A stretch of DNA of 63,560 nucleotides, the filler included. It is 4 parts of 4 records of this genome, joined end to end, with 100 filler letters (N's around TTAATTAATTAA, not from the genome) between each part and the next. Parts side by side here need not be neighbours in the genome. Positions count along the whole stretch, not along the records: positions 27,240 to 56,924 come from SRR31156797_4496; 3 more parts are not named here. The stretch is one strand, 5' to 3'. Each line of letters starts with the position of its first letter. Positions within the stretch are counted from its first letter, which is position 1. Positions 32,561 through 57,942 of the stretch are shown in pieces. Under the pieces are notes generated by a model. That model searched no databases. It saw nothing but the letters and a program-made list of their open reading frames with translations, and was not told the DNA's origin. A program made the position numbers and the translations under genes.

Positions 32561-32592
32561 AGTGTACTCAAATTTGATTACACTTAGATTAC
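32561..32592 (-). promoter_or_regulatory. Direct-repeat box + -10 upstream of ArsC-family gene
   Basis: Minus strand: GTAATC-taagt-GTAATC-N9-TACACT. Confidence 0.7.
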
Positions 32593-32598
32593 TAAAAT

Positions 32599-34089
32599 TT
32601 ATATTTTAAGTTGAGTAATTGCATCATTGGCAACTTGAATTAAATTATCAGCTCCTGGTAAAAACTCTACTAACCCAGTTCCTATTCCACCCCATATTGT
32701 CATCAATGCCATTAAAGCGATACAGATACTGCTTATAGTGATAGGAAAGTTTTTCTTTTCACTTTTTGGTGGATAAAAATACATCAATGCAATTAATTTA
32801 AAATAATAATATATTGATACAAATGCTATAAACACACCAAAACCTGCTAAAAACACCTGCCCTGATTCAATAGCACTAATAAAGATATAAAACTTCCCTA
32901 AGAATCCTATCGTTGAAGGAAATCCTGCCAAAGAAAGCATAAAAATACTCATCATTGCTGCCATATAAGGACGCTCATGAGCAAACCCTTTAAAGTGCTC
33001 AAAAGTGAGTCTTTTTTGTGTATCGCTTGCTATAAAGCTTAAAATTCCAAAAGCTCCAACTGCACTTAAAAAATATGCTATAAGATAAAATACAATAGCT
33101 GAAGAGGCAAACTCTGCTCCAACAGAGATTGAACTAAGTGCAATCAACAAATACCCACCATGAACGATACTAGATCCTGCTAACATTCTTTTTAGATTTG
33201 TTTGAGATATTGCTAAAAATGATCCACCAATAAGAGTTAAAAATGCAATTACATATAAAATAGTAGAAAAAATATGATACATCGGTGCAAAGTCTACTAA
33301 AAATAGTCGTAAAAGTAGAGCAAATACTGCTATTTTAAAAGTCGCTGCCATAAACATAGTCACTGGAAATGGTGCTCCATGATATACATCTACTACCCAA
33401 GAATGAAAAGGAACTGCTCCAATTTTAAAAAGAATCATCACAAGGATAAAAAGTAATCCTACAGCAACTAAAAGATTTACTTCACTACTTCCACTAATAA
33501 ACTGATAAATATCTCCTAGATAAGTTGATCCAACTGCACCATAAATAAGAGCTGATCCAAAGATGAAAAATGCTCCAGTTAAAGCTCCTAGTACGATATA
33601 TTTTAACATCGCTTCAGAACTTTTGGTATTTGTTTTATTATATCCTACTAAGATATATACAGCGATTGAAGCTACCTCTAAAGAGATAAATGCAGTGATC
33701 AACTCATTGGCATGGGCTAACATCATCATCCCAAATACACTAAAAAGTAAAAGTGAGAAAAACTCCCCATTGTAATAGTTTCTACTTTTAAAATAGTGAC
33801 TATTGATAAGCAGTGTAAACATCGCTCCACTTAAAAATAAGATGTCAAAAAGTATAGAGAACTGGTCAATAATAAACATCTGTCCAAAAATATCAGGAAA
33901 TAGATATCCCACTTGTACCCCATCAAAAAGTGAAAACTGTACTACAATAGCTAAAAATAAAAAGAGTACTGCCATTAAACTATAGTTTTTAATCGCTATT
34001 TTTGGGATAAAACTTACAAGCATTAGAATTAATGCCCCTATTGCTATGATCGTTGGAGCAAAGGCAAACTCAAGTCCATAACTTATCAT
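32599..34089 (-). CDS. nuoN: NADH-quinone oxidoreductase subunit N
   Basis: SLEVAS, SSEAMLKY, FKIGAVPFHSWVVDVY, LKRMLAGSS, LSLAGFP; last gene of the nuo operon. Confidence 0.93.
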   Translation of the reverse strand: MISYGLEFAFAPTIIAIGALILMLVSFIPKIAIKNYSLMAVLFLFLAIVVQFSLFDGVQVGYLFPDIFGQMFIIDQFSILFDILFLSGAMFTLLINSHYFKSRNYYNGEFFSLLLFSVFGMMMLAHANELITAFISLEVASIAVYILVGYNKTNTKSSEAMLKYIVLGALTGAFFIFGSALIYGAVGSTYLGDIYQFISGSSEVNLLVAVGLLFILVMILFKIGAVPFHSWVVDVYHGAPFPVTMFMAATFKIAVFALLLRLFLVDFAPMYHIFSTILYVIAFLTLIGGSFLAISQTNLKRMLAGSSIVHGGYLLIALSSISVGAEFASSAIVFYLIAYFLSAVGAFGILSFIASDTQKRLTFEHFKGFAHERPYMAAMMSIFMLSLAGFPSTIGFLGKFYIFISAIESGQVFLAGFGVFIAFVSIYYYFKLIALMYFYPPKSEKKNFPITISSICIALMALMTIWGGIGTGLVEFLPGADNLIQVANDAITQLKI

Positions 34090-35552
34090 AATGCACCTCC
34101 AAGCGTACCTAATATAAGCTGTAAGTTATTTTCAAACAGTGGCATAAAAAGTGATGGAACGACTCCCATCAATACTATTAAGAGCATAAGAGGTAGAAGT
34201 ATCAATGTCTCAATTAGAGTTAATTCAGTAAAACTTTTAGTCAATGTATTTGCCTCTCCATAGATAGTTCTTTGTAACATCCAAAATACAAATATCATTG
34301 CAGCTATCATAGTGGTTGCCGCGCAAATACCTATCCAAATATTATATTTAAATGCTCCAATGATAATAAGTAGTTCTGCCACAAATCCTCCAGTTCCTGG
34401 AACTCCTGCAATCCCAAGAGCAAAAAAGGCAAAGAAAAAGGCAAACCTTGGAGCAACAGTTGCTATTCCTCCTAGCTCTGAAATAGTAATGGTTTTAAGT
34501 CTATTTCCAAGCATCCCTATCATTAAAAAGATCCCTGCACTATTCAATGCATGGGTTGCTATAAGATATAAACTTCCATTCCATGCATAAATATTGGCTA
34601 GAACTAATCCCAGAGCTATCAAGGAGAGGTGTGATCCAGAAGAAAATGCAAACATCCTTTTGAGATCTTTTTCCATAATCGCATGAATTGCATAAAATAC
34701 TACTCCAATCACAGAAAAAGTGATAAACAGTGGGGTATAAAATGCAATTGGTTTTTCAAAAAGTTCAAACCCAAATCGCCAGATACCATAAACCCCTAGC
34801 TTTGCCATAATCGCTGAAAGTATTACAAGTGCTGGTGTCGGTGCAGAGCTATATGCAGGTGCCATCCAGGTATGAAATCCAACAAGAGGGATCTTGATAG
34901 CAAAAGCTAATAAAAACCCACTCGCTATTAAGATAGAAGTTTTAGGATCAAAATTTAAAGTAGCAAGATCTGATAAGGCAAAACTCCATACCCCATGAGT
35001 CTGTAGATACACTGAACCTAAATAAAGAATAGAAAAAAGCATCGCCATAGAACCAAGTACGGTCATAATAATGATCTTCATAGCATTATATTGACGCATC
35101 CCATATCCATATTTTCCTATCATTATAAAAATAGGTAAAAGCATTGTTTCCCAAAAGAGATAAAAAAGGATCACATCAAGTGAAACTACTGCGCCCATCA
35201 CTCCTGTTTGTAAAAACAGCAGATTGTACCAATACCCTTTTCGCTCCTCATTCCACAACGAGATAAAGATCAAAGGCATCAATAATGAGATCAAAAGAAG
35301 TAACACTAAAGAGATAGCATCTACTCCTATATAATAAGTGATCCCATAACTTTCAATCCAAGGAGCAATAGTGATAAACTGCATTGTTTTTGAGGTATCA
35401 AAGTGATATGTTAAAACAAGTACTAAAATAAAGACGATCAATGAAGCAGTTAGTGCTCCTATTCGAAGTATTTTAGATGAAGCTTTAAATAGTCCCATTA
35501 CAAGGATAAAACAAAGTGGAAGAAAAACAATAAAAGAAAGTATATTTTCCAT
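34086..35552 (-). CDS. nuoM: NADH-quinone oxidoreductase subunit M
   Basis: FYLFWE, FAIKIPL..FHTW, KLGVYG, GVPGTGGFVAE. Confidence 0.93.
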   Translation of the reverse strand: MENILSFIVFLPLCFILVMGLFKASSKILRIGALTASLIVFILVLVLTYHFDTSKTMQFITIAPWIESYGITYYIGVDAISLVLLLLISLLMPLIFISLWNEERKGYWYNLLFLQTGVMGAVVSLDVILFYLFWETMLLPIFIMIGKYGYGMRQYNAMKIIIMTVLGSMAMLFSILYLGSVYLQTHGVWSFALSDLATLNFDPKTSILIASGFLLAFAIKIPLVGFHTWMAPAYSSAPTPALVILSAIMAKLGVYGIWRFGFELFEKPIAFYTPLFITFSVIGVVFYAIHAIMEKDLKRMFAFSSGSHLSLIALGLVLANIYAWNGSLYLIATHALNSAGIFLMIGMLGNRLKTITISELGGIATVAPRFAFFFAFFALGIAGVPGTGGFVAELLIIIGAFKYNIWIGICAATTMIAAMIFVFWMLQRTIYGEANTLTKSFTELTLIETLILLPLMLLIVLMGVVPSLFMPLFENNLQLILGTLGGAL

Positions 35553-35553
35553 C

Positions 35554-37443
35554 TTACACCCCTATCCCGATAAGTAAAAGCATACAGAGCATTGATATCC
35601 CAAAGACGATATATACTGCATATTCTCTTACTTGACCATTTTGAAGTTTTGCAACTTTTGTTGCCATCACATTATATGAGCTTACACTATTATTGATCAA
35701 CCCATCTACTATTTTATTATCAAAAGTGGTATGAAAAAAATTGCTTAGATTTCGTAAACTTTTTACAAAAAGAGCATCATAAAGCTCATCGATATAAAAC
35801 TTATCTATAATTACTTGTTTCCAAATAGGAACAACTTCTAAAGCCTTTGATCGTACAGCAAAAAGTTTATACGCTAAAAATATCCCAGCGAGTGAAACAG
35901 CTAAATTAATAAGTCCTAAAAGATACTCTGTCGTATGGCTTACATGGTGGTGTTCTTCATCTAAGTGCAAAAATGAACTAAACCAGTTTGAGCCTCCATA
36001 CGCTTCATTTGCTCCTAAAAACCCTACAAATGCTGAACCAAGAGCAAGGATCAAGAGAGGAATGGTCATCTTTTTGCTAACACTATGGATTTGATGCTCC
36101 ATCTCTTTATTTGATAAGAACACAATAAATAGCATTCTAAACATATAAAATGCGGTTAAAAATGCGGTAATTACAGCCAAGATCCAAATAAAATAGTTCC
36201 CTGTGATAAAGGTATGATTGATAATAGCATCTTTTGAAAAGAACCCTGCAAATGGTGGAATTCCACTAATCGCTAAAGTGGCAATTAACATCATAATAAA
36301 AATAGCTGGCAGATACTTTTTTAGATTTCCCATCTTAAAGATATTTTGCTCATGGTGCATCGCAATGATAATAGCTCCAGCCCCCATAAATAAAAGAGCT
36401 TTAAAAAAAGCATGGGTAAATACATGAAATATCCCTGAACTATATGCTCCTAACCCAACGGCTACAAACATATATCCAAGTTGAGACATTGTTGAATAAG
36501 CAAGTATCTTTTTAATATCACTTTGAAAACAAGCAATAAGAGCAGCAAAGAGTGCCGAGGCAATCCCTATCATGGCGATAAATTCCCCAATGGCAGGAAC
36601 TTCATTGTAAACAAAAGCAAATCTTGCCACCATATACACTCCAGCTGTTACCATCGTAGCAGCGTGGATAAGGGCTGAAACTGGTGTTGGTCCAGCCATC
36701 GCGTCAGGAAGCCACACATATAAAGGAAGCTGGGCAGATTTTCCCATCGCTCCTACAAATAAAAGCACTCCAATAACAGCTAACATAGTAGAATCAACCA
36801 TCTTAATATGTGTTTCTAATGCCATAAAGTTAAAATCCACTCCAGACATCGAGATAAAAAGAATTGAAAGCCCAATGATAAATCCAAAATCCCCTACTCT
36901 ATTTACCATAAAAGCTTTATTGGCTGCTGTGATATTTTGAGTATCTTTAAAATAAAATCCAATAAGCAGATATGATGCAAGCCCTACAAGTTCCCATCCT
37001 ATAAACATAATAATAGGATTATTTGCTAACACCAAAAGAAGCATACTCCCTAAAAAGAAATTAAAGTAGCTAAAGAATTTTCCAAACCCTTTATCTCCAC
37101 TCATATACCCTGCCGCATAAATATGAATTAAAGCTCCTACAAAAGTAACAAAAGAGATCATAACAACGGAGAGCCTATCAGCCATAAAACTAAGCTCAAT
37201 ATGAAACTCTCCTATACTTACCCAAGTAAAAAGAGTACTTTGTAATATATAATCATTTGATTCTCCCATAGAGTGACTAGCAACCATTAAACTAAAAATG
37301 GTAACAATTACAGGAGTGATAATCCCAAGGATTTGATATACTCTCTCCCCTACTTTTTGTTTACTATCTATGAGATAAATAAGCCCTATAATAAAAGCAG
37401 ATAAAAATGGTAAAACAACAATAAGATTTAGATAGGTACTCAT
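35554..37443 (-). CDS. nuoL: NADH-quinone oxidoreductase subunit L
   Basis: GWELVGLASYLLIGF, NRVGD, GKSAQLPLYVWLPDAMAGPTPVSALIHAATMV. Confidence 0.96.
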   Translation of the reverse strand: MSTYLNLIVVLPFLSAFIIGLIYLIDSKQKVGERVYQILGIITPVIVTIFSLMVASHSMGESNDYILQSTLFTWVSIGEFHIELSFMADRLSVVMISFVTFVGALIHIYAAGYMSGDKGFGKFFSYFNFFLGSMLLLVLANNPIIMFIGWELVGLASYLLIGFYFKDTQNITAANKAFMVNRVGDFGFIIGLSILFISMSGVDFNFMALETHIKMVDSTMLAVIGVLLFVGAMGKSAQLPLYVWLPDAMAGPTPVSALIHAATMVTAGVYMVARFAFVYNEVPAIGEFIAMIGIASALFAALIACFQSDIKKILAYSTMSQLGYMFVAVGLGAYSSGIFHVFTHAFFKALLFMGAGAIIIAMHHEQNIFKMGNLKKYLPAIFIMMLIATLAISGIPPFAGFFSKDAIINHTFITGNYFIWILAVITAFLTAFYMFRMLFIVFLSNKEMEHQIHSVSKKMTIPLLILALGSAFVGFLGANEAYGGSNWFSSFLHLDEEHHHVSHTTEYLLGLINLAVSLAGIFLAYKLFAVRSKALEVVPIWKQVIIDKFYIDELYDALFVKSLRNLSNFFHTTFDNKIVDGLINNSVSSYNVMATKVAKLQNGQVREYAVYIVFGISMLCMLLLIGIGV

Positions 37444-37754
37444 TTTTGCCCTTTATCATATGAGAGTTTATTAAAAGCTTCACTATCAATAGTTCGTGTA
37501 GTTTTAAATAGATAGATAATAAGCGCTAAAAATATAGCTGCTTCAGCTGCAATAACAGCTATCATCAATAATGCCATCAACGATCCATCCATTGCCCCAT
37601 GAACTCTAGAAAAAGTAGCTAGTACAAGGTTTACACTACTGAGCATCAATTCAATCGACATATAGATCACAAAAAGGTTTTTTCTTGTAAGTACTCCGAT
37701 CAGTCCAATGGCAAAAAGGATCGTTGCAAGATATAAAAAACTATCTGGATTCAT
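37440..37754 (-). CDS. nuoK: NADH-quinone oxidoreductase subunit K
   Basis: RKNL....MSIELML, AAEAA; three TMs. Confidence 0.93.
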   Translation of the reverse strand: MNPDSFLYLATILFAIGLIGVLTRKNLFVIYMSIELMLSSVNLVLATFSRVHGAMDGSLMALLMIAVIAAEAAIFLALIIYLFKTTRTIDSEAFNKLSYDKGQK

Positions 37755-38253
37755 TTGACTCTCCTCTTTTTGAGATCACTATTCCACCTATAAGTGCTAC
37801 TAAAAGCAGTATCGATATGGTTTCAAAAGGAAGTACCCACTCACTAAAAAGAATCTTTCCTGTTAGTTTTAAAGTACCAAAGTCTGATGAAACATTAGCA
37901 AACTCTAAAGCGCTGCTATTGATAGCATAAAAGACTGTAAATACTATAGGAAGAACTAAAGCTATCATCAGCATCATATGCTTTTTTCCTAAAGAGTTTT
38001 TAGGTAAATTTTCCTCTTTGATATTAACTGATACGATAACTAAAAGTGCTAAAGTAACGATTGCTCCAACTGAGACTAGGATTTGCGCTAAAAATAAAAA
38101 GCTTTGATCTAAAAGCGCAAACATCCCTGAGAGTGCTATCATAGCAAGTAAAAAACTGATCGCACTAAAAACACTTTGTTTAAAAAGGATCATCCCAAGA
38201 GATCCCCCTATTAAAAACAGAGCCAAGATACTAAATATACTATTTTCCAGCAC
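37741..38253 (-). CDS. nuoJ: NADH-quinone oxidoreductase subunit J
   Basis: AQILVSVGAI, LPFETISILLLVALIGG; start re-called to GTG at 38253 with GGAGG RBS. Confidence 0.9.
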   Translation of the reverse strand: MLENSIFSILALFLIGGSLGMILFKQSVFSAISFLLAMIALSGMFALLDQSFLFLAQILVSVGAIVTLALLVIVSVNIKEENLPKNSLGKKHMMLMIALVLPIVFTVFYAINSSALEFANVSSDFGTLKLTGKILFSEWVLPFETISILLLVALIGGIVISKRGESNESR

Positions 38254-38764
38254 GAGCAACCTCCGAAGAAAAATTACCTTTATGGGATAATAATTGCTCT
38301 TTTTCAAGCACAAAATCTTCTCTTTTTTTTCCAGTAACCGTAAAGATACCTGTATCCATACGGATAGCATCACAAGGACACGCTTCCACACAATATCCAC
38401 AAAAGATACACTCTAAAGTATCTATAGCAAATCTTTTGGGCATCTTTTCATCTACTCCATCTTCTCTCTCAACCGCTTCAATGAAGATACACTCTGCTGG
38501 ACAAGCTGTTGCACACATAAAACAAGCAACACATCGTACACTCTCATCTTCTCTTTTTGTTAGACGGTGGAGTCCTCTATATCGATCACTGATATCTGTA
38601 GGCTGCTCTTCAGGGTACTCTAATACATCAATAGATTTTATATCATTTACATTTTTTCTTAAATGATCAAAAGTGATCTTTAATCCTTCAATGATAGCGG
38701 GGATATAGATACGCTCTTTAAAAGTTGTCCCATGTCGCTTTATTGTTTTGATCTTTTTTTCCAT
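38240..38764 (-). CDS. nuoI: NADH-quinone oxidoreductase subunit I
   Basis: YPEE, RYRGLH, CVACFMCATACP and CIFCGYCVEACP; start re-called to ATG 38764. Confidence 0.95.
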   Translation of the reverse strand: MEKKIKTIKRHGTTFKERIYIPAIIEGLKITFDHLRKNVNDIKSIDVLEYPEEQPTDISDRYRGLHRLTKREDESVRCVACFMCATACPAECIFIEAVEREDGVDEKMPKRFAIDTLECIFCGYCVEACPCDAIRMDTGIFTVTGKKREDFVLEKEQLLSHKGNFSSEVARAGK

Positions 38765-40056
38765 TAGCTCACCCCCACAACAATAATCGCTGTAATGAAA
38801 ATATTTACAAGAGAAAGTGGTAAAAGATAGTTCCACCCTAGTGTTTGAACTTGGTCATATCTAAACCTAGGAAGTGTCCATCGAACCACTATAAAAAAGA
38901 TATTAAAAAGCATCAGTTTAAATACAAAGATACCTATTTGTAAAATAGTTATCGTAATATTTGCTCCAAGTGATCCTTTTTCTAATCCTACTAAGAAAAA
39001 CCCTATCACTTCAAGTATCACAACCATCCCTATTAATACATACGTAAGCACTTTTGTTTCAAAGTTTCTCCCACCATCAGAGGAAACTGTAGCTCTTACA
39101 TTATTATTTTTCCACATCCAACGAAGTAAAAAGTAGATCGCAATTGGTAAAAATATCATACAAGCGATCACCACAATACTAAAGTTATTTCCTAGATCTT
39201 CCGTGCTAATCCAAGGAAGTTGATACCCACCAAAGAACATAGTGATCACCACAGCACTTGCTGTGTTCATAGCGATATATTCACCCATAAAATACATAGC
39301 AAACTTCATCGCAGAAAACTCTGTCATATGCCCTGCAACGATCTCACTCTCCCCTTCAGCTACATTAAATGGAGCTCTATTGGTCTCAGCAAAAATTGTG
39401 ATGATAAAAATAATTGCAGCAAGTGGTTGTACGATCACTCCCCAAGCTGGTAAAAATCCAAGTACTGTTCCACTTTGCCAATTAACCATCACATTAAAAT
39501 CTATACTTTGATAGGTGATGATCATAGCTACTACACTAAGACCTAATGGAAGCTCATAGCCAAGCATCTGAGAACTTGCACGCTGAGCTCCTAAAAGAGA
39601 ATATTTATTATGACTTAGCCATCCACCAAAGATGATACCGATAATTCCAATAGACCCAATTGCTAGATACCATAAGATTCCATATTCTACTGGTAAAGCT
39701 TGGATTCTAAATGATTCTTCACCAATCACTAGATTATCTGCAAAGGGGATAGTCATAAAAGCAAGGAGTGCTGAAACAAACATAATAGATGGTGCTAAAA
39801 TAAAAAGCCATTTCCCTTTTTTAATATGTGATGGATAATACTCCTCTTTAAATACAAGCTTGATCACATCAGCAAAAGATTGGATCACACCACCTAGTCT
39901 AAATCCTTTGATATTGGTTCGATTTGGTCCTGTTCTATCTTGAATAAGTCCTGCAATTCTTCGCTCTAACCAAACTAAAACAGGGATCATCAAAAGAGCT
40001 AAAAGAGCTGCTAAAACAATAGAAGCTAAAGTAACTATGATCATTGCTATACTCAT
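38764..40056 (-). CDS. nuoH: NADH-quinone oxidoreductase subunit H (long form)
   Basis: WLERR...IQDRTGPNR, NKYSLLG, AETNRAPF..AEGESE, RWTLPRFRYDQ. Confidence 0.95.
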   Translation of the reverse strand: MSIAMIIVTLASIVLAALLALLMIPVLVWLERRIAGLIQDRTGPNRTNIKGFRLGGVIQSFADVIKLVFKEEYYPSHIKKGKWLFILAPSIMFVSALLAFMTIPFADNLVIGEESFRIQALPVEYGILWYLAIGSIGIIGIIFGGWLSHNKYSLLGAQRASSQMLGYELPLGLSVVAMIITYQSIDFNVMVNWQSGTVLGFLPAWGVIVQPLAAIIFIITIFAETNRAPFNVAEGESEIVAGHMTEFSAMKFAMYFMGEYIAMNTASAVVITMFFGGYQLPWISTEDLGNNFSIVVIACMIFLPIAIYFLLRWMWKNNNVRATVSSDGGRNFETKVLTYVLIGMVVILEVIGFFLVGLEKGSLGANITITILQIGIFVFKLMLFNIFFIVVRWTLPRFRYDQVQTLGWNYLLPLSLVNIFITAIIVVGVS

Positions 40057-41432
40057 TTTATCTCCTCTTGTAGTTTATGAAGCCACTCTAAAATAGTATC
40101 AAGGTTTGATTCTACTGCATAGTTTGAATACTGTTTTATCTCATCTTCATTGATCAAGGTTCCACTATATTCACTAAAAACTGGGATTGGTGCAATTAAT
40201 TTATATTGTTCATAACTTGTATGGGTTTGAAAACTGATGATCTTATTATCTTTATATATAGAAACCATCGGGTGGTTAAAATTAATAATAAGATCAACTT
40301 CACTCTCAAACTCTTCTTTAATATCAAACTTTTCAACACCTTTTTTATTGGCACATCTCCAATTACTTTTTAACCAATCATCTCCAAACTCTTCATCATA
40401 ATAACACTCCATTGGAGCTATCACTTGTGCGCCTATCTCTTTTGCATAAGCAACAATAGCAGAGATATCTTCTACGTAAAGATTTGCATCGATAATGACA
40501 CCTATAGAGTTAGCCTCTTTGATATCTTTTTTTGCGAAGTAGCTAAAATCTTTTGAGTCGATCTCCACACCGTTTTGTAAAGAGACAAGTTGTCGATCTT
40601 TTTGCAAAGTATGAAAACTTAATCTTCCATCATCACAGATAAAATGTCCATTGATCTTTTTATTTACCCTTGGTCTAAATCTATAGATGATATCCTCTTT
40701 ATATTTCTCTTTATTATGATCAATATAGATATTACATCCCTTTGCACATCCATGGCAAATAGCATCAGAAGATTTTAAAAACCAAACTCGTTGATGAAAC
40801 CTAAAATCTTTACTTGTCAAAGCTCCAACAGGACAAAGATCAACAATATTCATAGCATATGGATTTTCTAATCTCATCCCTGGAACAGTAGTAACACAAG
40901 CATGATCTCCACGATTAACAATCCCAAGTTCTCCTGTTTTGGTTATCTCAGAAGTAAATCGTGTACATCTAGCACATAAAACACATCTTTCTTGATCTAA
41001 AACTATATTTGATCCAAGATCTACATTTTTCTTATTTTTTACTTTTTGCTCCATATTTATATTAGAATCATATAAGCCATAATCCATATAAAAATCTTGA
41101 AGTTTACACTCCCCTGCTTGATCACAAATAGGACAATCTACAGGATGGTTGATAAGTTCAAGTTCTAAGATTCTCTGACGAACAGAATTTATCTTTTCCC
41201 CTCTTGTTCTAACTTCCATCCCTTGCGTTACAAAAGTATCACAAGCAATTTGAGGTCGTTTTTTCCCTTCAATTTCTACCATACACATACGACAGTTTCC
41301 ATCTGCACCCAATGCTTCATGGTAACAAAAATAAGGGATATCTATCCCATTATCAATCAAAGCTTCAATAAGAAGTGTCCCCTCTTCTATTTTATAAGCA
41401 GTATCATCTACTCTAATCGTTACAAGACTCAT
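40053..41432 (-). CDS. nuoG: NADH-quinone oxidoreductase subunit G (short form)
   Basis: FCYH...GNCRMC, HPVDCPICDQAGEC, CVLCARC...CPVGAL, CHGCAKGC...CDDGR Fe-S motifs. Confidence 0.92.
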   Translation of the reverse strand: MSLVTIRVDDTAYKIEEGTLLIEALIDNGIDIPYFCYHEALGADGNCRMCMVEIEGKKRPQIACDTFVTQGMEVRTRGEKINSVRQRILELELINHPVDCPICDQAGECKLQDFYMDYGLYDSNINMEQKVKNKKNVDLGSNIVLDQERCVLCARCTRFTSEITKTGELGIVNRGDHACVTTVPGMRLENPYAMNIVDLCPVGALTSKDFRFHQRVWFLKSSDAICHGCAKGCNIYIDHNKEKYKEDIIYRFRPRVNKKINGHFICDDGRLSFHTLQKDRQLVSLQNGVEIDSKDFSYFAKKDIKEANSIGVIIDANLYVEDISAIVAYAKEIGAQVIAPMECYYDEEFGDDWLKSNWRCANKKGVEKFDIKEEFESEVDLIINFNHPMVSIYKDNKIISFQTHTSYEQYKLIAPIPVFSEYSGTLINEDEIKQYSNYAVESNLDTILEWLHKLQEEIK

Positions 41433-42694
41433 AGTTTTTTATCCTTTATATAGGATTCAAATTCAGATCTAAATTTCATAATAAACCCATCGATCACATC
41501 TGATGCAGCTGGGGCAAATACACAGATAGTTTGTCCATTCATCGTTTTTGATATCTCTAAAGCTTTATCGATATCCGCACCTTTAGCAATACCATCTAAA
41601 ATATTCTTTAGAATTGTATCAACCCAACCTGTCCCTTCACGACATGGAGTACATTGACCACACGATTCATGATGATAAAACTCAAGAAGATTTTTTAAGG
41701 CTTCTACCATATTAGTATCTTCATCCATTACGATCATTCCACCTGTTCCTAAAGCCGATCCAAGCTCTCTCATACTTTCATAATCAAGTTTTGCTTCCAT
41801 CACCTCATCGTATGTTAGTATTTTTGTAGAAGCCCCTCCAGGAATTACCGCTTTTAATTTTTTATCCCCTTTGATTCCACCACCATAGTGATTGATATAA
41901 TCGATCATTGGGGTTCCAAACTCTGCTTCATACACTCCTGGAGTTTTTACATGTCCACTCATAGCAAATAAAAGTGTCCCAGGAGAACATTCTGTACCAA
42001 AGCTTCTATACCCTTGCGCTCCATTTTCTATGATAAAAGGAACCGTTGCAATAGTCTCAACATTATTGACTAAGGTTGGCAAACCAAAATACCATTCACA
42101 CTCTTTTTGGTGAGGCTTTAATCTTGGATGTCCACGTTTCCCTTCCATAGATTCTAAAAGAGCAGATTTCTCTCCACAGATATAAGCTCCTGCTCCTCTA
42201 TGGATAGTAATATCTAAGGAAAACTCACTCTTTCCAAGTACATTTTTTCCTATCATATTTGCAAGGTATAGTTCATCAATCGCTTTTTGTAAGATATCTT
42301 GAAACTGTTTATATTCTCCCCGAATATAAATATATGCTTTGTCTGCTTTTATAGCATAACAAGTACAGATGATCCCCTCAAGTAAAAGGTGTGGGTCTTT
42401 TGTGATAATCTGTCTATCTTTAAAAGTTCCCGGTTCGCTCTCATCACAATTTACTGCTAAGACATTAAACCCTTCATCATGAAGTGGCATCAACGCCCAT
42501 TTATCACCTGCACTAGCACCTCCTCCACCTTTTCCTCGAAGTCCACTTTGTCTAATTATCTCTATAATTTCTTCTTTTTCCATAGAAAAAAGCTTTTCAC
42601 TCCAAGCATAAGCACCATGCTCTTTGGCTACTTCTAAAGAGGTGATATTCTCTATCTCAAAACGTGAGCTAACAATTTTTTTATCTTCAATCAT
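41429..42694 (-). CDS. nuoF: NADH-quinone oxidoreductase subunit F (FMN/NADH-binding)
   Basis: SGLRGKGGG, NCDESEPGTFKDR, GAGAYICGE, NNVET, ESCGQCTPCREG. Confidence 0.95.
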   Translation of the reverse strand: MIEDKKIVSSRFEIENITSLEVAKEHGAYAWSEKLFSMEKEEIIEIIRQSGLRGKGGGGASAGDKWALMPLHDEGFNVLAVNCDESEPGTFKDRQIITKDPHLLLEGIICTCYAIKADKAYIYIRGEYKQFQDILQKAIDELYLANMIGKNVLGKSEFSLDITIHRGAGAYICGEKSALLESMEGKRGHPRLKPHQKECEWYFGLPTLVNNVETIATVPFIIENGAQGYRSFGTECSPGTLLFAMSGHVKTPGVYEAEFGTPMIDYINHYGGGIKGDKKLKAVIPGGASTKILTYDEVMEAKLDYESMRELGSALGTGGMIVMDEDTNMVEALKNLLEFYHHESCGQCTPCREGTGWVDTILKNILDGIAKGADIDKALEISKTMNGQTICVFAPAASDVIDGFIMKFRSEFESYIKDKKL

Positions 42695-43167
42695 TGTGCT
42701 AACTCCTTTAAAATATCTACTGTACTCTCACGAGTAAGGTTTTCATAATAGATATCATTGATCTGCATCACTGGTGCTGTGCCACATGAACCTAAACATT
42801 CCACTTGAGAAAGGGTAAACTTTCCATCACTTGTGGTTTCTCCAATATCAATCTTTAGATACTCTTTAATAGCTTCAACGATCTCACTCTTTCCACATAA
42901 TGAACATGAAAGTGTTTTACATACTTGAAGATGATACTTTCCTATTGGTTCAAGATTAAACATCGTATAAAAAGTAGCAACTTTATATATCTCCATAAGG
43001 TGATGATTTGAGAGTTTAGCGATCTCTTGCATCGCTTCGATTGAGATATATCCCTCTTGATATTGTGCCATCCAAAGTAGTGGTAAAGATAAAGCTTTTG
43101 GATCAGGATATCTTGTTTTTAAAGCTTCTATTGTTTTTAAATTTTCATCAGTAAAAGAAAAACTCAT
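42691..43167 (-). CDS. nuoE: NADH-quinone oxidoreductase subunit E
   Basis: VATFYTMF, VCKTLSC, VECLGSC [2Fe-2S] motifs. Confidence 0.95.
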   Translation of the reverse strand: MSFSFTDENLKTIEALKTRYPDPKALSLPLLWMAQYQEGYISIEAMQEIAKLSNHHLMEIYKVATFYTMFNLEPIGKYHLQVCKTLSCSLCGKSEIVEAIKEYLKIDIGETTSDGKFTLSQVECLGSCGTAPVMQINDIYYENLTRESTVDILKELAQ

Positions 43168-44849: not shown

Positions 44850-45357
44850 GTTTCCCTTTGAAATCTTTGTGATCTTGTAGATCTAAAGAGGACTCTTCCC
44901 AAAGCTGTTTTTGTATCCCCATCACCGCATCAAGTATCGCTTCAGGTCTAGGAGGACAGCCTGCAATATACACATCCACTGGGATAATCTCATCAATTCC
45001 TTGAAGCGTAGTGTAGTTATCATAAAATCCACCACTACAAGCACATGCTCCCATACTCACTACCCATTTAGGCTCAGGCATCTGATCATAGATCTGTTTT
45101 AAAATAGGAGCTTGTTTATAGCTAATAGTTCCTGCTACAAAAAGAAGATCTGCATGTCTTGGAGAAAACCGTAAAACTTCTGCTCCAAAACGGGAGATAT
45201 CATAACGACTTGCTGCTGTTGCCATAAATTCAATGGCACAACATGCAGTTCCAAAGACCATAGGCCATAGTGAAGATTGTCTTCCCCAGTTAACTACTGC
45301 ATCAAGTCGTGTAGTGACAACTGCATCGCCTAATAGATTCTGTGCACTTACGTCCAT
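44839..45357 (-). CDS. nuoB: NADH-quinone oxidoreductase subunit B
   Basis: [31 protein letters not shown]. Confidence 0.96.
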
Positions 45358-45710
45358 TTTAACACCCCTGATTTATATACATAGATAAGCCCCGCAACCA
45401 AAATACCTACAAATACGAACATTTCGATCATCCCAAACATTCCAAGCTCTCGAAGCTGAATCGCCCATGGGAACATAAATAAAATCTCTACATCAAAAAG
45501 TAAAAAAATTATCCCTACGGTATAAAATTTTATATTAAATGTATCATAAGGATCTTTGTGGGTGAATCGTATACCACTCTCATAAGGTTCATTCTTTCTA
45601 GTATTATCGCTTTTAGCACCTAAGTATTTTGTTAGGTGAAAAACAACAGGCAAGGCTACAACAAGCACTAAAATAACACTTGATGCTAAAATCAAATTTG
45701 CAGACATCAT
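45348..45710 (-). CDS. nuoA: NADH-quinone oxidoreductase subunit A
   Basis: PYESG, FLLFDVE, FPWA, GVLKW. Confidence 0.94.
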
Positions 45711-45740: not shown

Positions 45741-45772
45741 ATTATACATAGATTAAATTTCAACTAGGTTAC
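45741..45772 (-). promoter_or_regulatory. Direct-repeat box + -10 upstream of nuoA
   Basis: Minus strand: GTAACC-tagtt-GAAATT-N9-TATAAT. Confidence 0.6.
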
Positions 45773-45804: not shown

Positions 45805-45836
45805 GTAACCAAAGTGCAACTCTTTTTTGTTAGGAT
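45805..45836 (+). promoter_or_regulatory. Direct-repeat box + -10 upstream of EAL-GGDEF gene
   Basis: GTAACC-aaagt-GCAACT-N9-TAGGAT. Confidence 0.65.
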
Positions 45837-45865: not shown

Positions 45866-47629
45866 ATGATAGATAAAAAGTGGACTAGCATAATTGAAAT
45901 ACTTGATTTTGCTTTTCAACCGATCGTAAATATAAAAAGTGGTCGAATCTTTGGAGTAGAAGCACTTTTAAGAAACCATAAAGAAGCTGCAGGATTTAAC
46001 TCTATTTATAATCTTTTTGATGAAGCGTACCACGATGGAGTATTGTATCAATTAGATCTCGAACTTCGTATCAAAGCGATCAAAAAATTTAAAACTATAG
46101 ATGTGGAAAACATCAAACTATTTTATAATATCGATAATCGTTTGATCTATATGCCTGATTTTACAAGTGGAAATACCAGTGAACTTCTTGAAAAACTCCA
46201 ACTACCTAAAAGCACCCTTTGTCTAGAGATCAGCGAAAAAGCTACGATACATGATTCTAGTTCTGTACAAAACCTTATTAATAGATATACCAAAGATGGC
46301 TTTGATGTATCAGTTGATAACTTTGGGACAGGGATTGCTGGTCTACAAATTTTATACTATGCACAAAATGATTATATAAAAATAGATCGTTTTTTTGTGA
46401 GTGATATCCATACAGATGCTAAGAAAAGACTTTTTTGTAGCAATATAGTCAATATGGCTCATCTTATGGGTCTCAAAGTGATCGCCAATGGCTTAGAAGA
46501 GGAGGAAGAGTACCTTACTTGTAAAGATATTGGAATAGACTTCATCCAAGGTTTTTTAATTCAAAAACCAAAACTTGATATGGGGAAGATCAAAGCAAAA
46601 TATAATGTGATCAGTGATCTATATAAAAATGATCAAAGAAACTATACTTCAAATATGATTGATAAATCAAAAATAGAGTATATTGAACCTATTAGTATCC
46701 ATACCTCTTTACATGATCTTTTTATCTATTTTCAATCAAACCCTGAGAATATCTTTGTACCAATTATTGATGACCTTGATCAACTCAAAGGGGTGATCTA
46801 CGAAAAAGATATTAAAAAACTTTCCTATTCACAATATGGAATATCCTTAGCTAAAAATGACCAAAGCAATTCTAATTCTAGAATCAAACAGTTTATAAAA
46901 AACGCCATCTCTTCAGAAATCACATGGGGTGTAGATAAAGTACTACAAATCTATAATATGGACAGAGAAAGCTCTTTTGGTATCTTTATCACTAAAAATG
47001 GAAAATATCATGGGTTTATCGATGTTAATAATCTTTTATCAATCTCATATAATAGAAACTTAGAAATAGCAAAAGATCAAAATCCACTTACAAAGCTTCC
47101 TGGAAATCATCAAATTGATATCTTTATCAATGAAGCTTTAGAGTGTAAAAATGATAAAACCTATCATATCGTGTATTTTGATTTTAATGATTTCAAACCA
47201 TTTAATGATGCTTATGGCTTTAGACAAGGGGATCGTGCTATTATGATCTTTGCGGATATTTTAAAAACGATTTTGCCAAATGATACTTTTACCGCGCATA
47301 TTGGTGGAGATGACTTTTTTATGGGCTTTAGAGAAAAAGAGTATCAAGAGGTATATGAATTAACTGATATGGTACAACACAAATTTAGAGATCAAGTCCT
47401 AAACCTTTACAATGAAAAAGACAAAAAAAATGGTTATATCGAAACAGCTGATAGATTTGGAATAAAGCGTAAATTTAATCTTCTTGGAGTATGTAGTGCC
47501 ATTGTAGAGATTGTTTCACAAAAGACTCCAAAAGATCTTGATCTTGTCCTTGGAAAATTAAAAAAAGAAGCAAAAAAATCGTTTTTACCACTAGGATCTT
47601 CGATTCGTGATACTGACTCTTGTAACTAA
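45866..47629 (+). CDS. EAL - (CBS-like) - GGDEF c-di-GMP signalling protein
   Basis: FQPIV...GVEALLR, DNFGTG, KIDRFF, QGF (EAL); NPLTKLPG, DFNDFKPFNDAYG...GD, HIGGDDF (GGDEF). Confidence 0.9.
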   Translation: MIDKKWTSIIEILDFAFQPIVNIKSGRIFGVEALLRNHKEAAGFNSIYNLFDEAYHDGVLYQLDLELRIKAIKKFKTIDVENIKLFYNIDNRLIYMPDFTSGNTSELLEKLQLPKSTLCLEISEKATIHDSSSVQNLINRYTKDGFDVSVDNFGTGIAGLQILYYAQNDYIKIDRFFVSDIHTDAKKRLFCSNIVNMAHLMGLKVIANGLEEEEEYLTCKDIGIDFIQGFLIQKPKLDMGKIKAKYNVISDLYKNDQRNYTSNMIDKSKIEYIEPISIHTSLHDLFIYFQSNPENIFVPIIDDLDQLKGVIYEKDIKKLSYSQYGISLAKNDQSNSNSRIKQFIKNAISSEITWGVDKVLQIYNMDRESSFGIFITKNGKYHGFIDVNNLLSISYNRNLEIAKDQNPLTKLPGNHQIDIFINEALECKNDKTYHIVYFDFNDFKPFNDAYGFRQGDRAIMIFADILKTILPNDTFTAHIGGDDFFMGFREKEYQEVYELTDMVQHKFRDQVLNLYNEKDKKNGYIETADRFGIKRKFNLLGVCSAIVEIVSQKTPKDLDLVLGKLKKEAKKSFLPLGSSIRDTDSCN

Positions 47630-47653
47630 CTTGTAATCGAAAATTATTATCAT
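47622..47653 (+). promoter_or_regulatory. Direct-repeat box + -10 upstream of phoX
   Basis: GTAACT-aactt-GTAATC-N9-TATCAT. Confidence 0.75.
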
Positions 47654-49508: not shown

Positions 49509-49516
49509 TACTATTT

Positions 49517-49550
49517 TATATACAGAGAACTTCTCTGTATATAGATCTTT
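49517..49550 (+). terminator. Perfect hairpin after phoX
   Basis: TATATACAGAGAA-c-TTCTCTGTATATA followed by a T-rich tail. Confidence 0.65.
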
Positions 49551-49598
49551 TTTAAACTTCTATCTTTATTAATACATAATATTACAAGGTTATTTCAA

Positions 49599-51350: not shown

Positions 51351-51363
51351 GTAAAATTTATCT

Positions 51364-51395
51364 GTAACCAAAAAGTAATCCAGTTGTACTAAAAT
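51364..51395 (+). promoter_or_regulatory. Direct-repeat box + -10 upstream of OlsF-like gene
   Basis: GTAACC-aaaaa-GTAATC-N9-TAAAAT. Confidence 0.75.
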
Positions 51396-51429
51396 ACCGA
51401 GTTAAATACATCACTAGGAATATCACCAT

Positions 51430-53154
51430 ATGATAAATATTGAAAAAGAGATAATTAAAAAATTTCCAAACCTGAGTAATAGAGCTCCTATGCTTCAAAA
51501 GTCTTTATTTAAAATCGCGCAAAAACTTGTCCATGAGGATCAAGTGAATGCTTTTTTAAAAGAAAATGGTCATCTTAAAGGGTTTGACTTTTTAGAAGCG
51601 GTGCTGGATTATTTTAAATTTGATTTTTCATATTCAAGTAGGGATATAGAGAATATTCCATCTCATGGAAGAGTTGTGATCATATCAAACCATCCTTTAG
51701 GTGCTCTTGATGCACTTTGTCTTTTAAAACTAGTAGGAAGTGTAAGAAAAGATGTAAAGATCGTAGCTAATGATTTTTTAGCAGGAATTGATGCTTTAGA
51801 TTCACTTTTTATCAAAGTAGATAACTTTCAAGCCAAACAAGCAAAAGAGAATATTAAAAATATCTATGCTGCACTTGATAGAGAAGAAGCTGTTATTATC
51901 TTTCCAGCAGGAGAAGTGAGTCGTGTCTCTCCAACTGGAGTCAAAGATGGAAAATGGCAAAAAGGGTTTTTAAAGTTTGCACAAAAATCAAAAAGTCCAA
52001 TTTTACCAATTTTAGTAGATGCAAAAAACTCAAAAACATTTTATACAGTATCTGTTTTAAATAAAACTTTTTCAACAATCCTTTTATCTGATGAGATGTT
52101 TAAAAAGAAAGATAAAAATATTGCTATCAAAATAGGAAAACTTATTCCACATGAGAATATTACAAAAACCACTTCAACAAAAATAGATATAGTAAATCAA
52201 TATAAAAAACATCTCTATGGACTAAAAAAAGGGAAAAAACTTTATTTTGATACGATCGATACCATTGCTCATTCTGAAAATAGACAGTTTTTAAAAAAAG
52301 AGCTAAAAGAATCTCAACTTATAGGGGAAACCAACGATAGTAAAAAGATCTATCTTTTTGATTATGCATCCGATTCAGCTGTAATAAAAGAGATTGGACG
52401 TTTAAGAGAGCTTAGCTTTAGAAAAGTAAATGAAGGGGTCAATAAAAAAAGAGATATTGACCAATACGATCAATACTATAAACATATTGTTTTATGGGAT
52501 GAAGAGGAACTAGAGATCGTAGGAGCTTATAGAATTGGAAATGGGAAATATATTAAAGAGCATTATGGGAAAGAGGGATTTTACTCAAATACTTTATTTA
52601 AATTTCAAGATGAGTTCTTACCATATCTAGATGATGCTATAGAGCTTGGCCGAAGTTTTGTACAACCAAAATATTGGGGTACTAGAGCACTTGATTACCT
52701 ATGGTTTGGGATTGGAGCATATTTAAAACATAATCCACAGATCAAATATATGTTTGGACCGGTTAGTCTAAGTGGAAACTTTCCTCAATATGCAAAAGAG
52801 CTTATAGTAGACTTTTATCAAAGCTATTTTAGAGCTGAGATAAAATTTGTAGAGCCTATCTATCCATTTGAGTATGAGACTTCAGAGATCGCTTTAAATA
52901 ATCCATTTCAATTTAATAACTATAAAGAGGATCTGAAACTTTTAAAAAATCAGCTTAAAAGTATGGATCTAGCAATTCCAACTTTATATAAACAATATGG
53001 TGAATTATGCGAAGAGGGAGGATTGGAATTTCATGGATTTAATGTGGACCCAGATTTTTCAAACTGTATCGATGGATTTATCATCGTATCAATTGAAAAG
53101 ATCAAACAATCTAAAGTGGATAGATATATAGGAAAAGAGGAAATTGGTAACTGA
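51430..53154 (+). CDS. Bifunctional acyltransferase (PlsC-like + GNAT), OlsF-like ornithine/amino-lipid synthase
   Basis: NHPLGALD (HX4D), FPAGEVS in the N-domain; EIGRLRE.SFR...EG, IVGAYR, IELGRSFVQPKYW, LW.GIG in the C-domain. Confidence 0.8.
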   Translation: MINIEKEIIKKFPNLSNRAPMLQKSLFKIAQKLVHEDQVNAFLKENGHLKGFDFLEAVLDYFKFDFSYSSRDIENIPSHGRVVIISNHPLGALDALCLLKLVGSVRKDVKIVANDFLAGIDALDSLFIKVDNFQAKQAKENIKNIYAALDREEAVIIFPAGEVSRVSPTGVKDGKWQKGFLKFAQKSKSPILPILVDAKNSKTFYTVSVLNKTFSTILLSDEMFKKKDKNIAIKIGKLIPHENITKTTSTKIDIVNQYKKHLYGLKKGKKLYFDTIDTIAHSENRQFLKKELKESQLIGETNDSKKIYLFDYASDSAVIKEIGRLRELSFRKVNEGVNKKRDIDQYDQYYKHIVLWDEEELEIVGAYRIGNGKYIKEHYGKEGFYSNTLFKFQDEFLPYLDDAIELGRSFVQPKYWGTRALDYLWFGIGAYLKHNPQIKYMFGPVSLSGNFPQYAKELIVDFYQSYFRAEIKFVEPIYPFEYETSEIALNNPFQFNNYKEDLKLLKNQLKSMDLAIPTLYKQYGELCEEGGLEFHGFNVDPDFSNCIDGFIIVSIEKIKQSKVDRYIGKEEIGN

Positions 53155-53199
53155 TTTGTAACTCACAGTAACCAAATTGAAATAATTTTTTTTTATAAT
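53147..53199 (+). promoter_or_regulatory. Tandem direct-repeat boxes + -10 upstream of small ORFs/phoH
   Basis: GTAACT-gattt-GTAACT-caca-GTAACC-aaatt-GAAATA-N9-TATAAT. Confidence 0.75.
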
Positions 53200-53230
53200 T
53201 GTTTTGCAATAACCAAAAAGGAATTCTTAC

Positions 53231-53479
53231 ATGAAAAAAAACATTGCTAAAATCAAATCTCAGTTCAGTTCAGAAATCTCACAAGCAAAAGCAAACAACT
53301 ACGAAGCGATCATGCTTCCACTTGAGTGTGAATATGACCCATACTGTCTAAACAATATAGAAGATATCGATCATGTATTAGATATGGCAAATGATTTTGG
53401 TTGGGATCAATTTCTTTTAATAGATTTATTAAAAAGAAGTGAAACTTTTATTGATCTATTTGAATTTGAAGCAGCATAA
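53231..53479 (+). CDS. Small acidic hypothetical protein
   Basis: AAGGA RBS; stop overlaps next start (TAATG). Confidence 0.65.
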   Translation: MKKNIAKIKSQFSSEISQAKANNYEAIMLPLECEYDPYCLNNIEDIDHVLDMANDFGWDQFLLIDLLKRSETFIDLFEFEAA

Positions 53480-53676
53480 TGTTTGATAAACTAAAACAAA
53501 AACTTCAAAAACTTTTTGAAGATGATGAAGCAGAAAAAGAGGAATATAAATCTCTTTTAAAGAAGTTTGAGAAAAAACTCAAAAAGCTTCAAGACAAAGA
53601 TGATGAGGAATCAAAAGAGGAGATCCTCATCATCGAAAAAACGATCAAAAAAATTAAAAAACATCTCCGTTCATAA
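53479..53676 (+). CDS. Small charged coiled-coil hypothetical protein
   Basis: Translationally coupled; K/E-rich helix. Confidence 0.55.
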   Translation: MFDKLKQKLQKLFEDDEAEKEEYKSLLKKFEKKLKKLQDKDDEESKEEILIIEKTIKKIKKHLRS

Positions 53677-53740
53677 AACAATAATCAACATAAGGTTACA
53701 ATTGTAGATTATTGATATCCACACTTAAGGTAATACTCTC

Positions 53741-55114
53741 ATGGGAAAAAAAATCTATGTTATAGATACAAACGTTATTTTACAAAATCTCCAAAATATA
53801 TTTAATGTTTCAGATAATGGAACCAATATTGTTGTTATTCCAGAAACAGTTCTTGTTGAGCTTGAGGATAAAAAAAAGCTCTTTAATGAACTAGGCTACC
53901 AATCCCGTCAATTTGCCAGATATTTAGCAAAGACAAAAATCAAAGAGGTGGTTCATAAAAAAAACTTCAAAGTAGTAAAACTTTATGATGAACAGATTGA
54001 GATTCATATCATCTCAAAAGATAAATACGAAAGTGAGATGTTAGCTCATAATATTGCTGAGAGTAATGATAAGAGAATTATTGAAGTTGCCGAAGTTGCA
54101 AGGGATTATTATAAAGGGGAGAAGATCATATTTCTCTCTATTGATATCTATGCAAGAACTTTTGCACTTTTAGCAAATATCAAAACTGAGACACTCCATG
54201 AAGATAAAGCCGATATCCCTACTTTTGAATTTATTAAAAAAATAGAACTTGATTCAAGCTACTTTAACTCTTTACATCTTTCAGATATTCGACAATTTGA
54301 TGAAGAATATACAGTTCAAAACTTTTGTTATGAGTTTTTATCCCCTGATGGGAATAGCACTTATGCAGTGATAATTAATGAAAGAGTCCACTTAATAGAA
54401 GATAGTGAATTTCATCCTTTAGTGATCCGTCCAGCGAATCTTAAACAAAAGTTCTTTTTAAAAGCAATTCTTACTAATATGTACAATCTACTTGTGATCG
54501 ATGCAAAAGCAGGGTCAGGAAAGACCTTAATGTCAGTAGCTAGTGCTATGAGACTCATTGATGTTGGTGCTTATGAGAAGATCGTCTATGTAAGAAACTC
54601 AATTGAATCACTTGATAAAGGTGCAGATGTGGGATACCTTGCAGGGAATGATGAGAAATTTCGAATCTATAATATGGCACTGTATGACACTTTAGAGTTC
54701 ATTGGGAAAAAGAAGCTTAAAAAGAATGAAAGCAGAGATAATCCAGAATCAATCCATTCAAAAATAGATGAACTTATCTCAAAATATAATATTGAGATGT
54801 TATGGCCAGGGGAAGCAAGAGGACGGACTTTAAGTGATGCTATTGTGATTATGGATGAGTGGCAAAATAGTTCAGAAAACACTACACAACTTATCCTCTC
54901 ACGACTTGATGAAAGCTGTATGGCTATAGTGATAGGATCAAATAGACAGATAGATAATCTATACTTAAATAAATATAATAATGGTCTTACTACACTTATG
55001 AAACAAACAAATTATGAACATCCAGAATTAAAGATGTTTGCAATAGAACTTGATAAAGCAGTTAGAGGAAAATTTGCTGAGTTTACTGAGCGAATCTTTG
55101 AAAGAAAAAAATAA
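53741..55114 (+). CDS. PIN-PhoH (PhoH2/YlaK-like) protein
   Basis: YVIDTNV PIN domain, SNDKRI; AGSGKT Walker A, GYLAG, RGRTL, IMDEWQN, GSNRQID. Confidence 0.88.
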   Translation: MGKKIYVIDTNVILQNLQNIFNVSDNGTNIVVIPETVLVELEDKKKLFNELGYQSRQFARYLAKTKIKEVVHKKNFKVVKLYDEQIEIHIISKDKYESEMLAHNIAESNDKRIIEVAEVARDYYKGEKIIFLSIDIYARTFALLANIKTETLHEDKADIPTFEFIKKIELDSSYFNSLHLSDIRQFDEEYTVQNFCYEFLSPDGNSTYAVIINERVHLIEDSEFHPLVIRPANLKQKFFLKAILTNMYNLLVIDAKAGSGKTLMSVASAMRLIDVGAYEKIVYVRNSIESLDKGADVGYLAGNDEKFRIYNMALYDTLEFIGKKKLKKNESRDNPESIHSKIDELISKYNIEMLWPGEARGRTLSDAIVIMDEWQNSSENTTQLILSRLDESCMAIVIGSNRQIDNLYLNKYNNGLTTLMKQTNYEHPELKMFAIELDKAVRGKFAEFTERIFERKK

Positions 55115-55149
55115 TTTTTCAAAATACTATTCTATCATTTTATAATAAT

Positions 55150-55181
55150 GTAACCAAAATGTAATCTTTTGATCATATTAT
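55150..55181 (+). promoter_or_regulatory. Direct-repeat box + -10 upstream of MCP
   Basis: GTAACC-aaaat-GTAATC-N9-TATTAT. Confidence 0.75.
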
Positions 55182-57937: not shown

Positions 57938-57942
57938 AAAAT

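Follow-up and report, generated by a model that had tools for sequence, protein, structure and literature searches.

A Pho-box-like direct repeat with fixed geometry at seven clustered promoters of an Arcobacteraceae genome and at phosphate-uptake genes of its relatives

The Escherichia coli Pho box has been described as an 18-nt element of two 7-nt repeats 4 nt apart, later redefined as two 11-nt units, and PhoB binds such 11-bp units in tandem, head to tail (PMC4415409). In Campylobacter jejuni, PhoX is reported to be activated by PhosS-PhosR and tlp2 lies upstream of phoX and is co-transcribed with it, and in Pseudomonas aeruginosa phosphate taxis is regulated by the Pho regulon (PMC6250842). 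For Arcobacter, a 2019 review states that, beyond those it discusses, regulatory proteins have no reported functions (PMC6682613). Here we evaluate a direct repeat shared by seven promoters in a stretch of 63,560 nucleotides (hereafter "the window", meaning that whole stretch) from a member of the family Arcobacteraceae, order Campylobacterales, which consists of four contigs joined by N (1-17545, 17646-27139, 27240-56924 and 57025-63560) and carries all seven sites on contig 3 (27240-56924). The original prediction, made from the window alone, took this repeat for a lineage-specific Pho box that defines a physically clustered phosphate-starvation regulon. With the nearest genome (G001; 97% identical over 3.6 kb; 1.8 Mb) and genus relatives standing in for the window's own genome, we interpret the repeat as most probably this organism's Pho box, that is, the operator of a phosphorylated PhoB-type response regulator.

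Every one of the seven sites proved to be present with the coordinates, strands and letters first given for it. The sites share a single layout, GTAAYN-N5-GNAAYN, then exactly 9 nt, then a TANNNT -10 hexamer, so that every site (7/7) has at least two direct repeats at an 11-bp period; all are intergenic and oriented toward the adjoining gene, and the 9-nt spacer, which had been called invariant along with the 11-bp period, holds at 7/7. Where a site is shared with G001 (four of the window sites), 23-34 nt separate the -10 from the start codon. Scanning the window for the box pattern GTAAYCNNNNNGNAAYH returned 7 matches versus 0.46 expected, a count reached in 0/100 shuffles, with six of them being claimed sites and one (33453) lying within nuoN, and the pattern GWAAYYNNNNNGWAAYY returned 7 matches versus 1.31 expected, comprising five claimed sites, an upstream half-site pair at 53147 and a coding match at 9908. 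The composite of box, 9 nt and TANNNT has 8 exact matches in 63.5 kb (the seven claimed sites plus the one at 9908, inside an open reading frame [ORF]) and 12 matches at up to one mismatch versus 2.14 expected. A pattern scan of the whole window found no intergenic composite match in contigs 1, 2 and 4, in agreement with the earlier remark that contig 4 lacks the motif between its genes. The preference for this spacing is not a pattern artefact, because, of the 30 box-only matches in G001, 16 place a TANNNT at spacer 9 and only 0-5 do so at each of the other spacers (4 to 15). The shuffles, together with the reversed controls, speak against a chance origin of the motif.

The box thus abuts the -10 at a fixed position and replaces the -35, and no sigma-70-type -35/-10 match was found at any of the six sites in the scanned region 45300-56900 (the sigma-70 consensus scan gave 66 matches versus 59.3 expected, a total that is not informative in itself). 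One could read this arrangement differently, with GTAAC as the -35-like element of an alternative sigma factor of the extracytoplasmic function (ECF) type rather than an activator site, since the upstream hexamer does lie at about -35 and ECF sigma factors are known in Arcobacter, one paper having treated them together with energy metabolism in A. butzleri. We consider this very improbable given that the element is a direct repeat with an 11-bp period and up to four half-sites, the signature of tandem winged-helix binding, that the downstream hexamer is an ordinary sigma-70-type TANNNT, and that the second half-site falls at about -27 to -22, positions at which sigma factors make no sequence contact.

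An independent line of support for the Pho-box reading came from a weight matrix trained on nine pst and phosphonate (phn) promoters of G001 and the genus relative G067, none of them within the window, and scanned over both window strands in two versions. With the model of box, spacer and -10, the seven highest-scoring positions in the whole window were the claimed sites (28.0 for the first, 7.8 for the seventh), five of which exceeded anything found in ten shuffles (maximum 16.8). When only the box was scored, they ranked 1, 2, 3, 5, 6, 8 and 9.

The relatives then revealed what else this signal precedes. In G001 the loose box-only pattern is not enriched (38 matches versus 40 in the reversed control), and the composite pattern gives 22 matches versus 3; the motif therefore does not stand at most promoters, and had it done so the original prediction would have failed by its own terms. 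A general promoter element was rejected for the same reason, with no more than about 22 sites in a genome. In 14/22 composite matches the -10 is followed at 22-40 nt by the start of an ORF of at least 60 aa, and because ten of these promoters lack a window counterpart, the regulon is larger than the cluster. The box-preceded genes of G001 encode a PstS-family protein, PstC (284.9 bits, cut-off 196), PstB (398.9 bits, cut-off 343), PhoX, OlsF, a PhnD-like binding protein, a HAD-IIA hydrolase, a divergent pair of PotD/PhnS-like and PotA/PhnT-like proteins, a NuoE-like protein and a DUF4912 protein. Rather than being absent from pstS, a second outcome named as refuting the prediction, the box stands before pstS, pstC and pstB-phoU-response regulator-kinase in the relatives, so that in both G001 and G067 it marks the pst genes as well as the regulator's own operon. 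Because the same signal precedes phosphate-uptake genes in close relatives, the phosphate-starvation regulator very probably docks at it, and the pst, phn, phoX and olsF promoters of G001 and G067, along with the matrix ranking, support the original prediction on this point.

Separately, we observed that the box-preceded NuoE-like gene of G001 is only 32% identical to the window NuoE, and that energy-metabolism genes recur among the predicted targets. On contig 46 of the same genome, a box is followed by an 81-aa receiver-domain-like ORF whose start lies 103 nt beyond the -10; the same control might here extend to a receiver gene that is either broken or stand-alone.

Physical clustering, the second element of what had been proposed, holds up and is conserved in the genus: 14/24 matches in G067 fall on contig 1 at 59-144 kb, i.e., within 85 kb, and 10/18 in G033 fall within 67 kb. 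The G067 boxes precede pstS, pstCA, pstB-phoU-regulator-kinase, phoX, olsF and orf82...phoH2, as well as two phosphonate loci, namely a GntR-phnCDE-carbon-phosphorus (C-P) lyase operon (PhnI, PhnJ), from which a box-preceded aldo-keto reductase gene diverges, and a second PhnD-like gene. Boxes also stand before a gap-pfk-pyk cluster, before the gene for a 1195-aa pyruvate:ferredoxin oxidoreductase (PFOR), before an NDH-2-like gene that is followed by the orthologue of the window's EAL-GGDEF gene, and before a kinase-like gene that is followed by the orthologue of the window's methyl-accepting chemotaxis protein (MCP) gene. Since the first 424 nt of G001 contig 76 hold the orthologue of the G067 gene that sits between MCP and pstC, the pst and regulator genes probably follow window contig 3; synteny with both genomes predicts pstCA and pstB-phoU-regulator-kinase no more than a few kilobases further on.

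As for the protein that would bind, pstB in G001 is followed by phoU, a 223-aa OmpR-family response regulator and a kinase whose best NCBIfam hit is PhoR, all in one operon behind its own box. The regulator had been said not to lie in the window, and since a Pfam scan of 43 window ORFs revealed no OmpR-family regulator, that statement holds for those ORFs. We infer which protein binds the box, that it activates rather than represses, and that phosphate limitation is the inducing condition. By analogy with PhoB, a dimer of the phosphorylated PhoB-type regulator, most likely the 223-aa protein, would bind head-to-tail with one winged-helix domain per 11-bp unit, and, if transcription begins about 7 nt downstream of the -10, the box would lie at roughly -38 to -22. 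The box would fill the -35 position, the -35 element itself being absent, and because it sits in place of that missing element the bound regulator would, under phosphate scarcity, act as a class II activator that recruits sigma-70 RNA polymerase; the box ahead of the regulator operon would add autoregulation. The predicted outputs would include phosphate scavenging (phoX and orf583), replacement of phospholipid by ornithine lipid (olsF), the orf82-orf65-phoH2 operon, a chemoreceptor and a cyclic di-GMP (c-di-GMP) enzyme, and, with less certainty, an ArsC-related gene and the nuoA-N operon.

A number of observations pull in the other direction. The presence of the box at pstS was checked in G001, a 97%-identical relative standing in for the window's genome; about 3/22 composite matches in G001 are expected by chance, and 8/22 have no ORF start at 22-40 nt. 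The candidate regulator scores 165.2 bits with its best NCBIfam hit, PhoB (TIGR02154), below the equivalog cut-off of 296.2, and G001 encodes nine other OmpR-family regulators. Within the window, the nuoA and EAL-GGDEF sites have the lowest matrix scores, inside the shuffle range. Upstream of nuoA, such a box was found in 0/30 family members, and it is absent in 5 genus relatives, whose NuoA are 44-50% identical. The ArsC-like orthologues in G067 and G079 (60-61%) show only a degenerate GTTACT/GAAACA version, and in five genus relatives the ArsC-like gene is preceded by a degenerate box at most.

Part of this would fit an operator of another OmpR-family regulator (e.g., one for envelope stress or general starvation), with the phosphate genes forming only part of its regulon. 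Such a regulator could be drawn from the 10 OmpR-family members of G001, the pst-linked one falls under the PhoB equivalog cut-off, and the targets include genes outside the classical Pho set (nuo, EAL-GGDEF, MCP and ArsC-related genes here; the glycolytic cluster and PFOR in G067); the half-site, moreover, resembles the CpxR-type half-site. We nonetheless judge it improbable, because every hallmark target is a phosphate gene (pstS, pstC, pstB-phoU, phoX, phosphonate uptake, C-P lyase, olsF), the pst-linked regulator and its kinase are themselves encoded in an operon that starts with the box, no envelope-stress genes are among the annotated targets in G001 and G067, and the box tracks pstS order-wide, often with the orthologous regulator adjacent.

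This wider distribution was evaluated at several levels. In 81 Arcobacteraceae genomes the composite totals 716 matches versus 330 in the control, and 62 genomes exceed their own control. The box stands in the same place at 16/21 phoX loci (Arcobacteraceae, Halarcobacter, Sulfurospirillum), two further phoX loci have G-A-A-A variants by eye, and phoX and orf583 are divergent with a box each in 7/8 loci of the Sulfurospirillum type. For the order, a search with a single PstS protein at E <= 1e-20 reached 11/71 genomes and was replaced by a Pfam family search, with which GTNNYN-N5-GTNNYN-N9-TANNNT was found upstream in 25/32 pstS-type loci (reversed control 0, shuffle mean 0.14). The commonest first hexamer across the order is GTAACC, and other cores before pstS-type genes include GTCATT/GTCACA in a genome of family f2, GTATCC twice in a genome of family f11, mixed GTCATT/GTAACA pairs in family f8, and GTTTCC-N5-GTTTTC with 9 nt and TATAAT before pstS of a genome of family f26. 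The geometry, then, is universal across the order while the core drifts. What did not survive is the description of the box as narrowly lineage-specific: GTAAYC is the commonest form across the order and occurs in many families, and it is the C. jejuni form, as given in the original prediction, that looks like the outlier.

At E <= 1e-33, 57/71 genomes of the order have an orthologue of the G001 regulator, and its gene often lies beside pstS. Aligned across the order, the recognition helix (K/R)TVNVAI(K/N)RLK hardly varies among genomes whose boxes read GTAAY or GTCAY and is changed only in two, to TINTAIVRLK where the boxes are GTATCC and to AINIAISRLK where they are GTTTCC. That helix changes track changes in the box core is suggestive only, since n=2 and the regulators of these GTATCC and GTTTCC genomes are also the most diverged overall (the f26 regulator is 37% identical).

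Turning to the individual promoters, we grade Pho membership as high for phoX, olsF, orf82-phoH2 and MCP, because their scores are strong and their orthologues are predicted to be box-driven in G067. The MCP-side box (55150..55181, + strand; GTAACC-N5-GTAATC, 9 nt, TATTAT) is the best-scoring site, with matrix scores of 21.4 for the box alone and 28.0 with the -10 (scores are given in this order throughout). It precedes the gene for a methyl-accepting chemotaxis protein (55212..56924, +; Pfam MCPsignal) that is cut by the contig end, the N run beginning at 56925, and whose orthologue (66%) in G067 lies within a box-headed operon directly upstream of pstCA. The phoX-side box (47622..47653, +; GTAACT-N5-GTAATC, 9 nt, TATCAT; 21.3 and 20.9) overlaps the last codons of the EAL-GGDEF gene and precedes phoX (47685-49508, +), whose product matches Pfam PhoX (PF05787) at 82.9 bits, above the gathering cut-off of 24. 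The olsF-side box (51364..51395, +; GTAACC-N5-GTAATC, 9 nt, TAAAAT; 19.9 and 19.2) precedes olsF (51430..53154, +), which encodes a bifunctional synthase of ornithine lipid, a phosphorus-free membrane lipid; it matches NCBIfam NF052615 with 818.8 bits, passing the cut-off of 620 over its full length (residues 1-567 on profile positions 1-569 of 570), and its G067 orthologue (79%) is likewise box-preceded.

The promoter of the phoH2 operon is the most elaborate. Two extra half-sites had been noted upstream of 53168, and these exist, at 53147 and 53158, giving four half-sites at 53147-53184 with successive spacings of 11, 10 and 11. The whole element (53147..53199, +) reads GTAACT, GTAACT, GTAACC and GAAATA, followed by 9 nt and TATAAT (14.6 and 25.1), and precedes orf82, orf65 and the gene for PhoH2 (PIN and PhoH domains), a probable operon at 53231..55114 (+; Pfam PhoH 132.5 bits, PIN_4 77.4 bits). 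In G067, genes of this operon have orthologues at 60% and 86%, and three half-sites at an 11-bp period lie upstream of the orf82 orthologue.

Between phoX and olsF lies orf583 (49599-51350, +), a conserved phoX neighbour for which no Pfam or NCBIfam family was found among the libraries scanned; atlas features suggest family PF27085 Aq_1262, "putative cytochrome c / lipoprotein". It adjoins phoX in 21/22 loci (Arcobacteraceae, Sulfurospirillum, Nitratifractor), and we regard it as a candidate PhoX partner. We also observed a terminator-like hairpin (49515-49545, +; 14 pairs and a T-run) between the phoX stop and orf583, which has no box of its own in the window, so that co-transcription of the two would require read-through past the hairpin.

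Membership of the EAL-GGDEF promoter is graded fair, because its score is weak, yet the orthologue (66%) is the second gene of a box-headed operon in G067. Its box (45805..45836, +; GTAACC-N5-GCAACT, 9 nt, TAGGAT; 14.5 and 7.8) is divergent from the nuoA box, 32 bp apart, and the gene (45866..47629, +) would encode a protein of c-di-GMP turnover (Pfam EAL 153.9 bits, GGDEF 56.3 bits). The ArsC-like and nuoA sites are not conserved and are therefore less certain than the other five, and for both genes Pho membership is graded weak. The ArsC-side box (32561..32592, - strand; GTAATC-N5-GTAATC, 9 nt, TACACT; 14.0 and 17.9) lies in a 61-bp gap that runs from the nuoN stop to the predicted target, an ArsC-related gene of the Spx-MgsR family (32193..32537, -; 114 aa; Pfam ArsC 69 bits; NCBIfam TIGR01617 94.4 bits, above the cut-off of 75.05), and the same site was found in G001. 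The nuoA-side box (45741..45772, -; GTAACC-N5-GAAATT, 9 nt, TATAAT; 10.1 and 15.0) is the weakest of the seven, and would make the complete nuoA-N operon, with canonical nuoE and nuoF (32599..45710, -; Pfam complex I subunit matches), a possible lineage-specific target; the nuoA region is not assembled in G001.

It is at such promoters, nuoA especially, that the boxes may be fortuitous or inert, with the regulator repressing or having no effect, and we treat this as a serious possibility that nonetheless falls short of being the likelier one. The nuoA box is low in matrix score and unconserved, and its -10 is a perfect TATAAT that might suffice alone; a genome-wide study of E. coli PhoB likewise reports many transcriptionally inert sites (PMC10294691). 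Set against this, the nuoA geometry is identical to that of well-supported sites, including the 30 nt from -10 to start codon, and a 67% nuoA orthologue in another genome (G042) keeps a one-mismatch box with the geometry unchanged.

Further observations concern the remainder of the window. The N runs at 17546-17645, 27140-27239 and 56925-57024 are paired, with 264 N in all, and there is no real adjacency across the joins (e.g., of MCP with an ABC ATPase and a ferrochelatase). At 2440-6691, a fused trehalose-6-phosphate synthase/phosphatase gene (735 aa) is divergent from a GH15 trehalase-like gene, and a GTATCC-type near-box at 4227, within the former, is probably due to chance. On contig 4 (58877-63207), four paralogous FlgO-domain genes (205, 238, 257 and 263 aa) are arranged around a family-less 403-aa ORF.

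A broader reading would join these elements into a compact "Pho island", in which a PhoB orthologue acts directly through one box to drive not only phosphate scavenging and lipid remodelling but also c-di-GMP turnover, a chemoreceptor, the ArsC-related gene and respiration, the last through the 13-kb nuoA-N complex I operon in the window and through NuoE-like, NDH-2-like, PFOR and glycolytic genes of relatives, with GTAAYC ancestral in Campylobacterales and the Campylobacter-type and GTATCC cores derived along with recognition-helix changes. Taken jointly, these propositions are tentative, and we consider it rather unlikely that all of them would hold together.

Full-text literature searches, which did not reach subscription papers (including Wosten 2006) or supplements, returned no paper that describes this kind of box in Arcobacter, Sulfurospirillum, Sulfurimonas or Campylobacterota, and "pho box", "PhoB", "PhosR" and "pst" are all absent from the A. 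butzleri genome paper. The box is a sequence variant, apparently undescribed, of a well-known kind of operator, and what is less ordinary is that the promoters form an island and that respiratory and behavioural genes are among the predicted targets. With the Pho box defined, the regulon becomes testable in Arcobacteraceae and, it seems, in most Campylobacterales families, and the box predicts phosphate-scarcity genes in bacteria of sediment, vents and wastewater (phosphonate use, PhoX, phosphorus-free ornithine lipid). It also flags orf583 (Aq_1262 family), orf82 and the DUF4912 protein as phosphate-starvation genes, and the natural series of boxes (GTCAY, GTAAY, GTATC, GTTTC) with their regulators offers a system for studying how regulators and their operators change in step. 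Were nuo indeed a target, phosphate status would be tied directly to complex I expression.

Compared with the PhoB box of E. coli and other Proteobacteria, the element here is alike in its 11-bp direct repeats, in replacing the -35, in its placement at pstS, pst-phoU and the regulator's operon, and in having a regulator that is encoded with a kinase and PhoU (here in G001); the distance of the E. coli Pho box to the -10 is also equivalent. It differs in target content, in the packing of promoters into one island, and in its core, GTAAY(C) here versus CTGTCAT in E. coli, which, aligned on GT, differ by one core base, the third being A and not C (PMC4415409), a contrast softened by genomes of the order that mix GTCATT with GTAACA or have GTCAY alone. 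The C. jejuni PhosS/PhosR system belongs to the same phylum and has a pho box of the same layout with pstS and phoX as shared outputs; its core as quoted in the original prediction, a string that we could not match in the literature search, contrasts with GTAAY, is absent from every window site, and fits only the GTTTCC-N5-GTTTTC box before pstS of the one f26 genome. PhosS/PhosR is said, in the title of Wosten et al. 2006, to be "non-classical", unlike the regulator of the relatives studied here, which is encoded in a classical pstB-phoU-regulator-kinase operon. Finally, like the Pho-linked chemoreceptors of P. aeruginosa and C. jejuni (Tlp2), the truncated MCP gene lies in a phosphate-starvation neighbourhood, and unlike tlp2 it has a box of its own.

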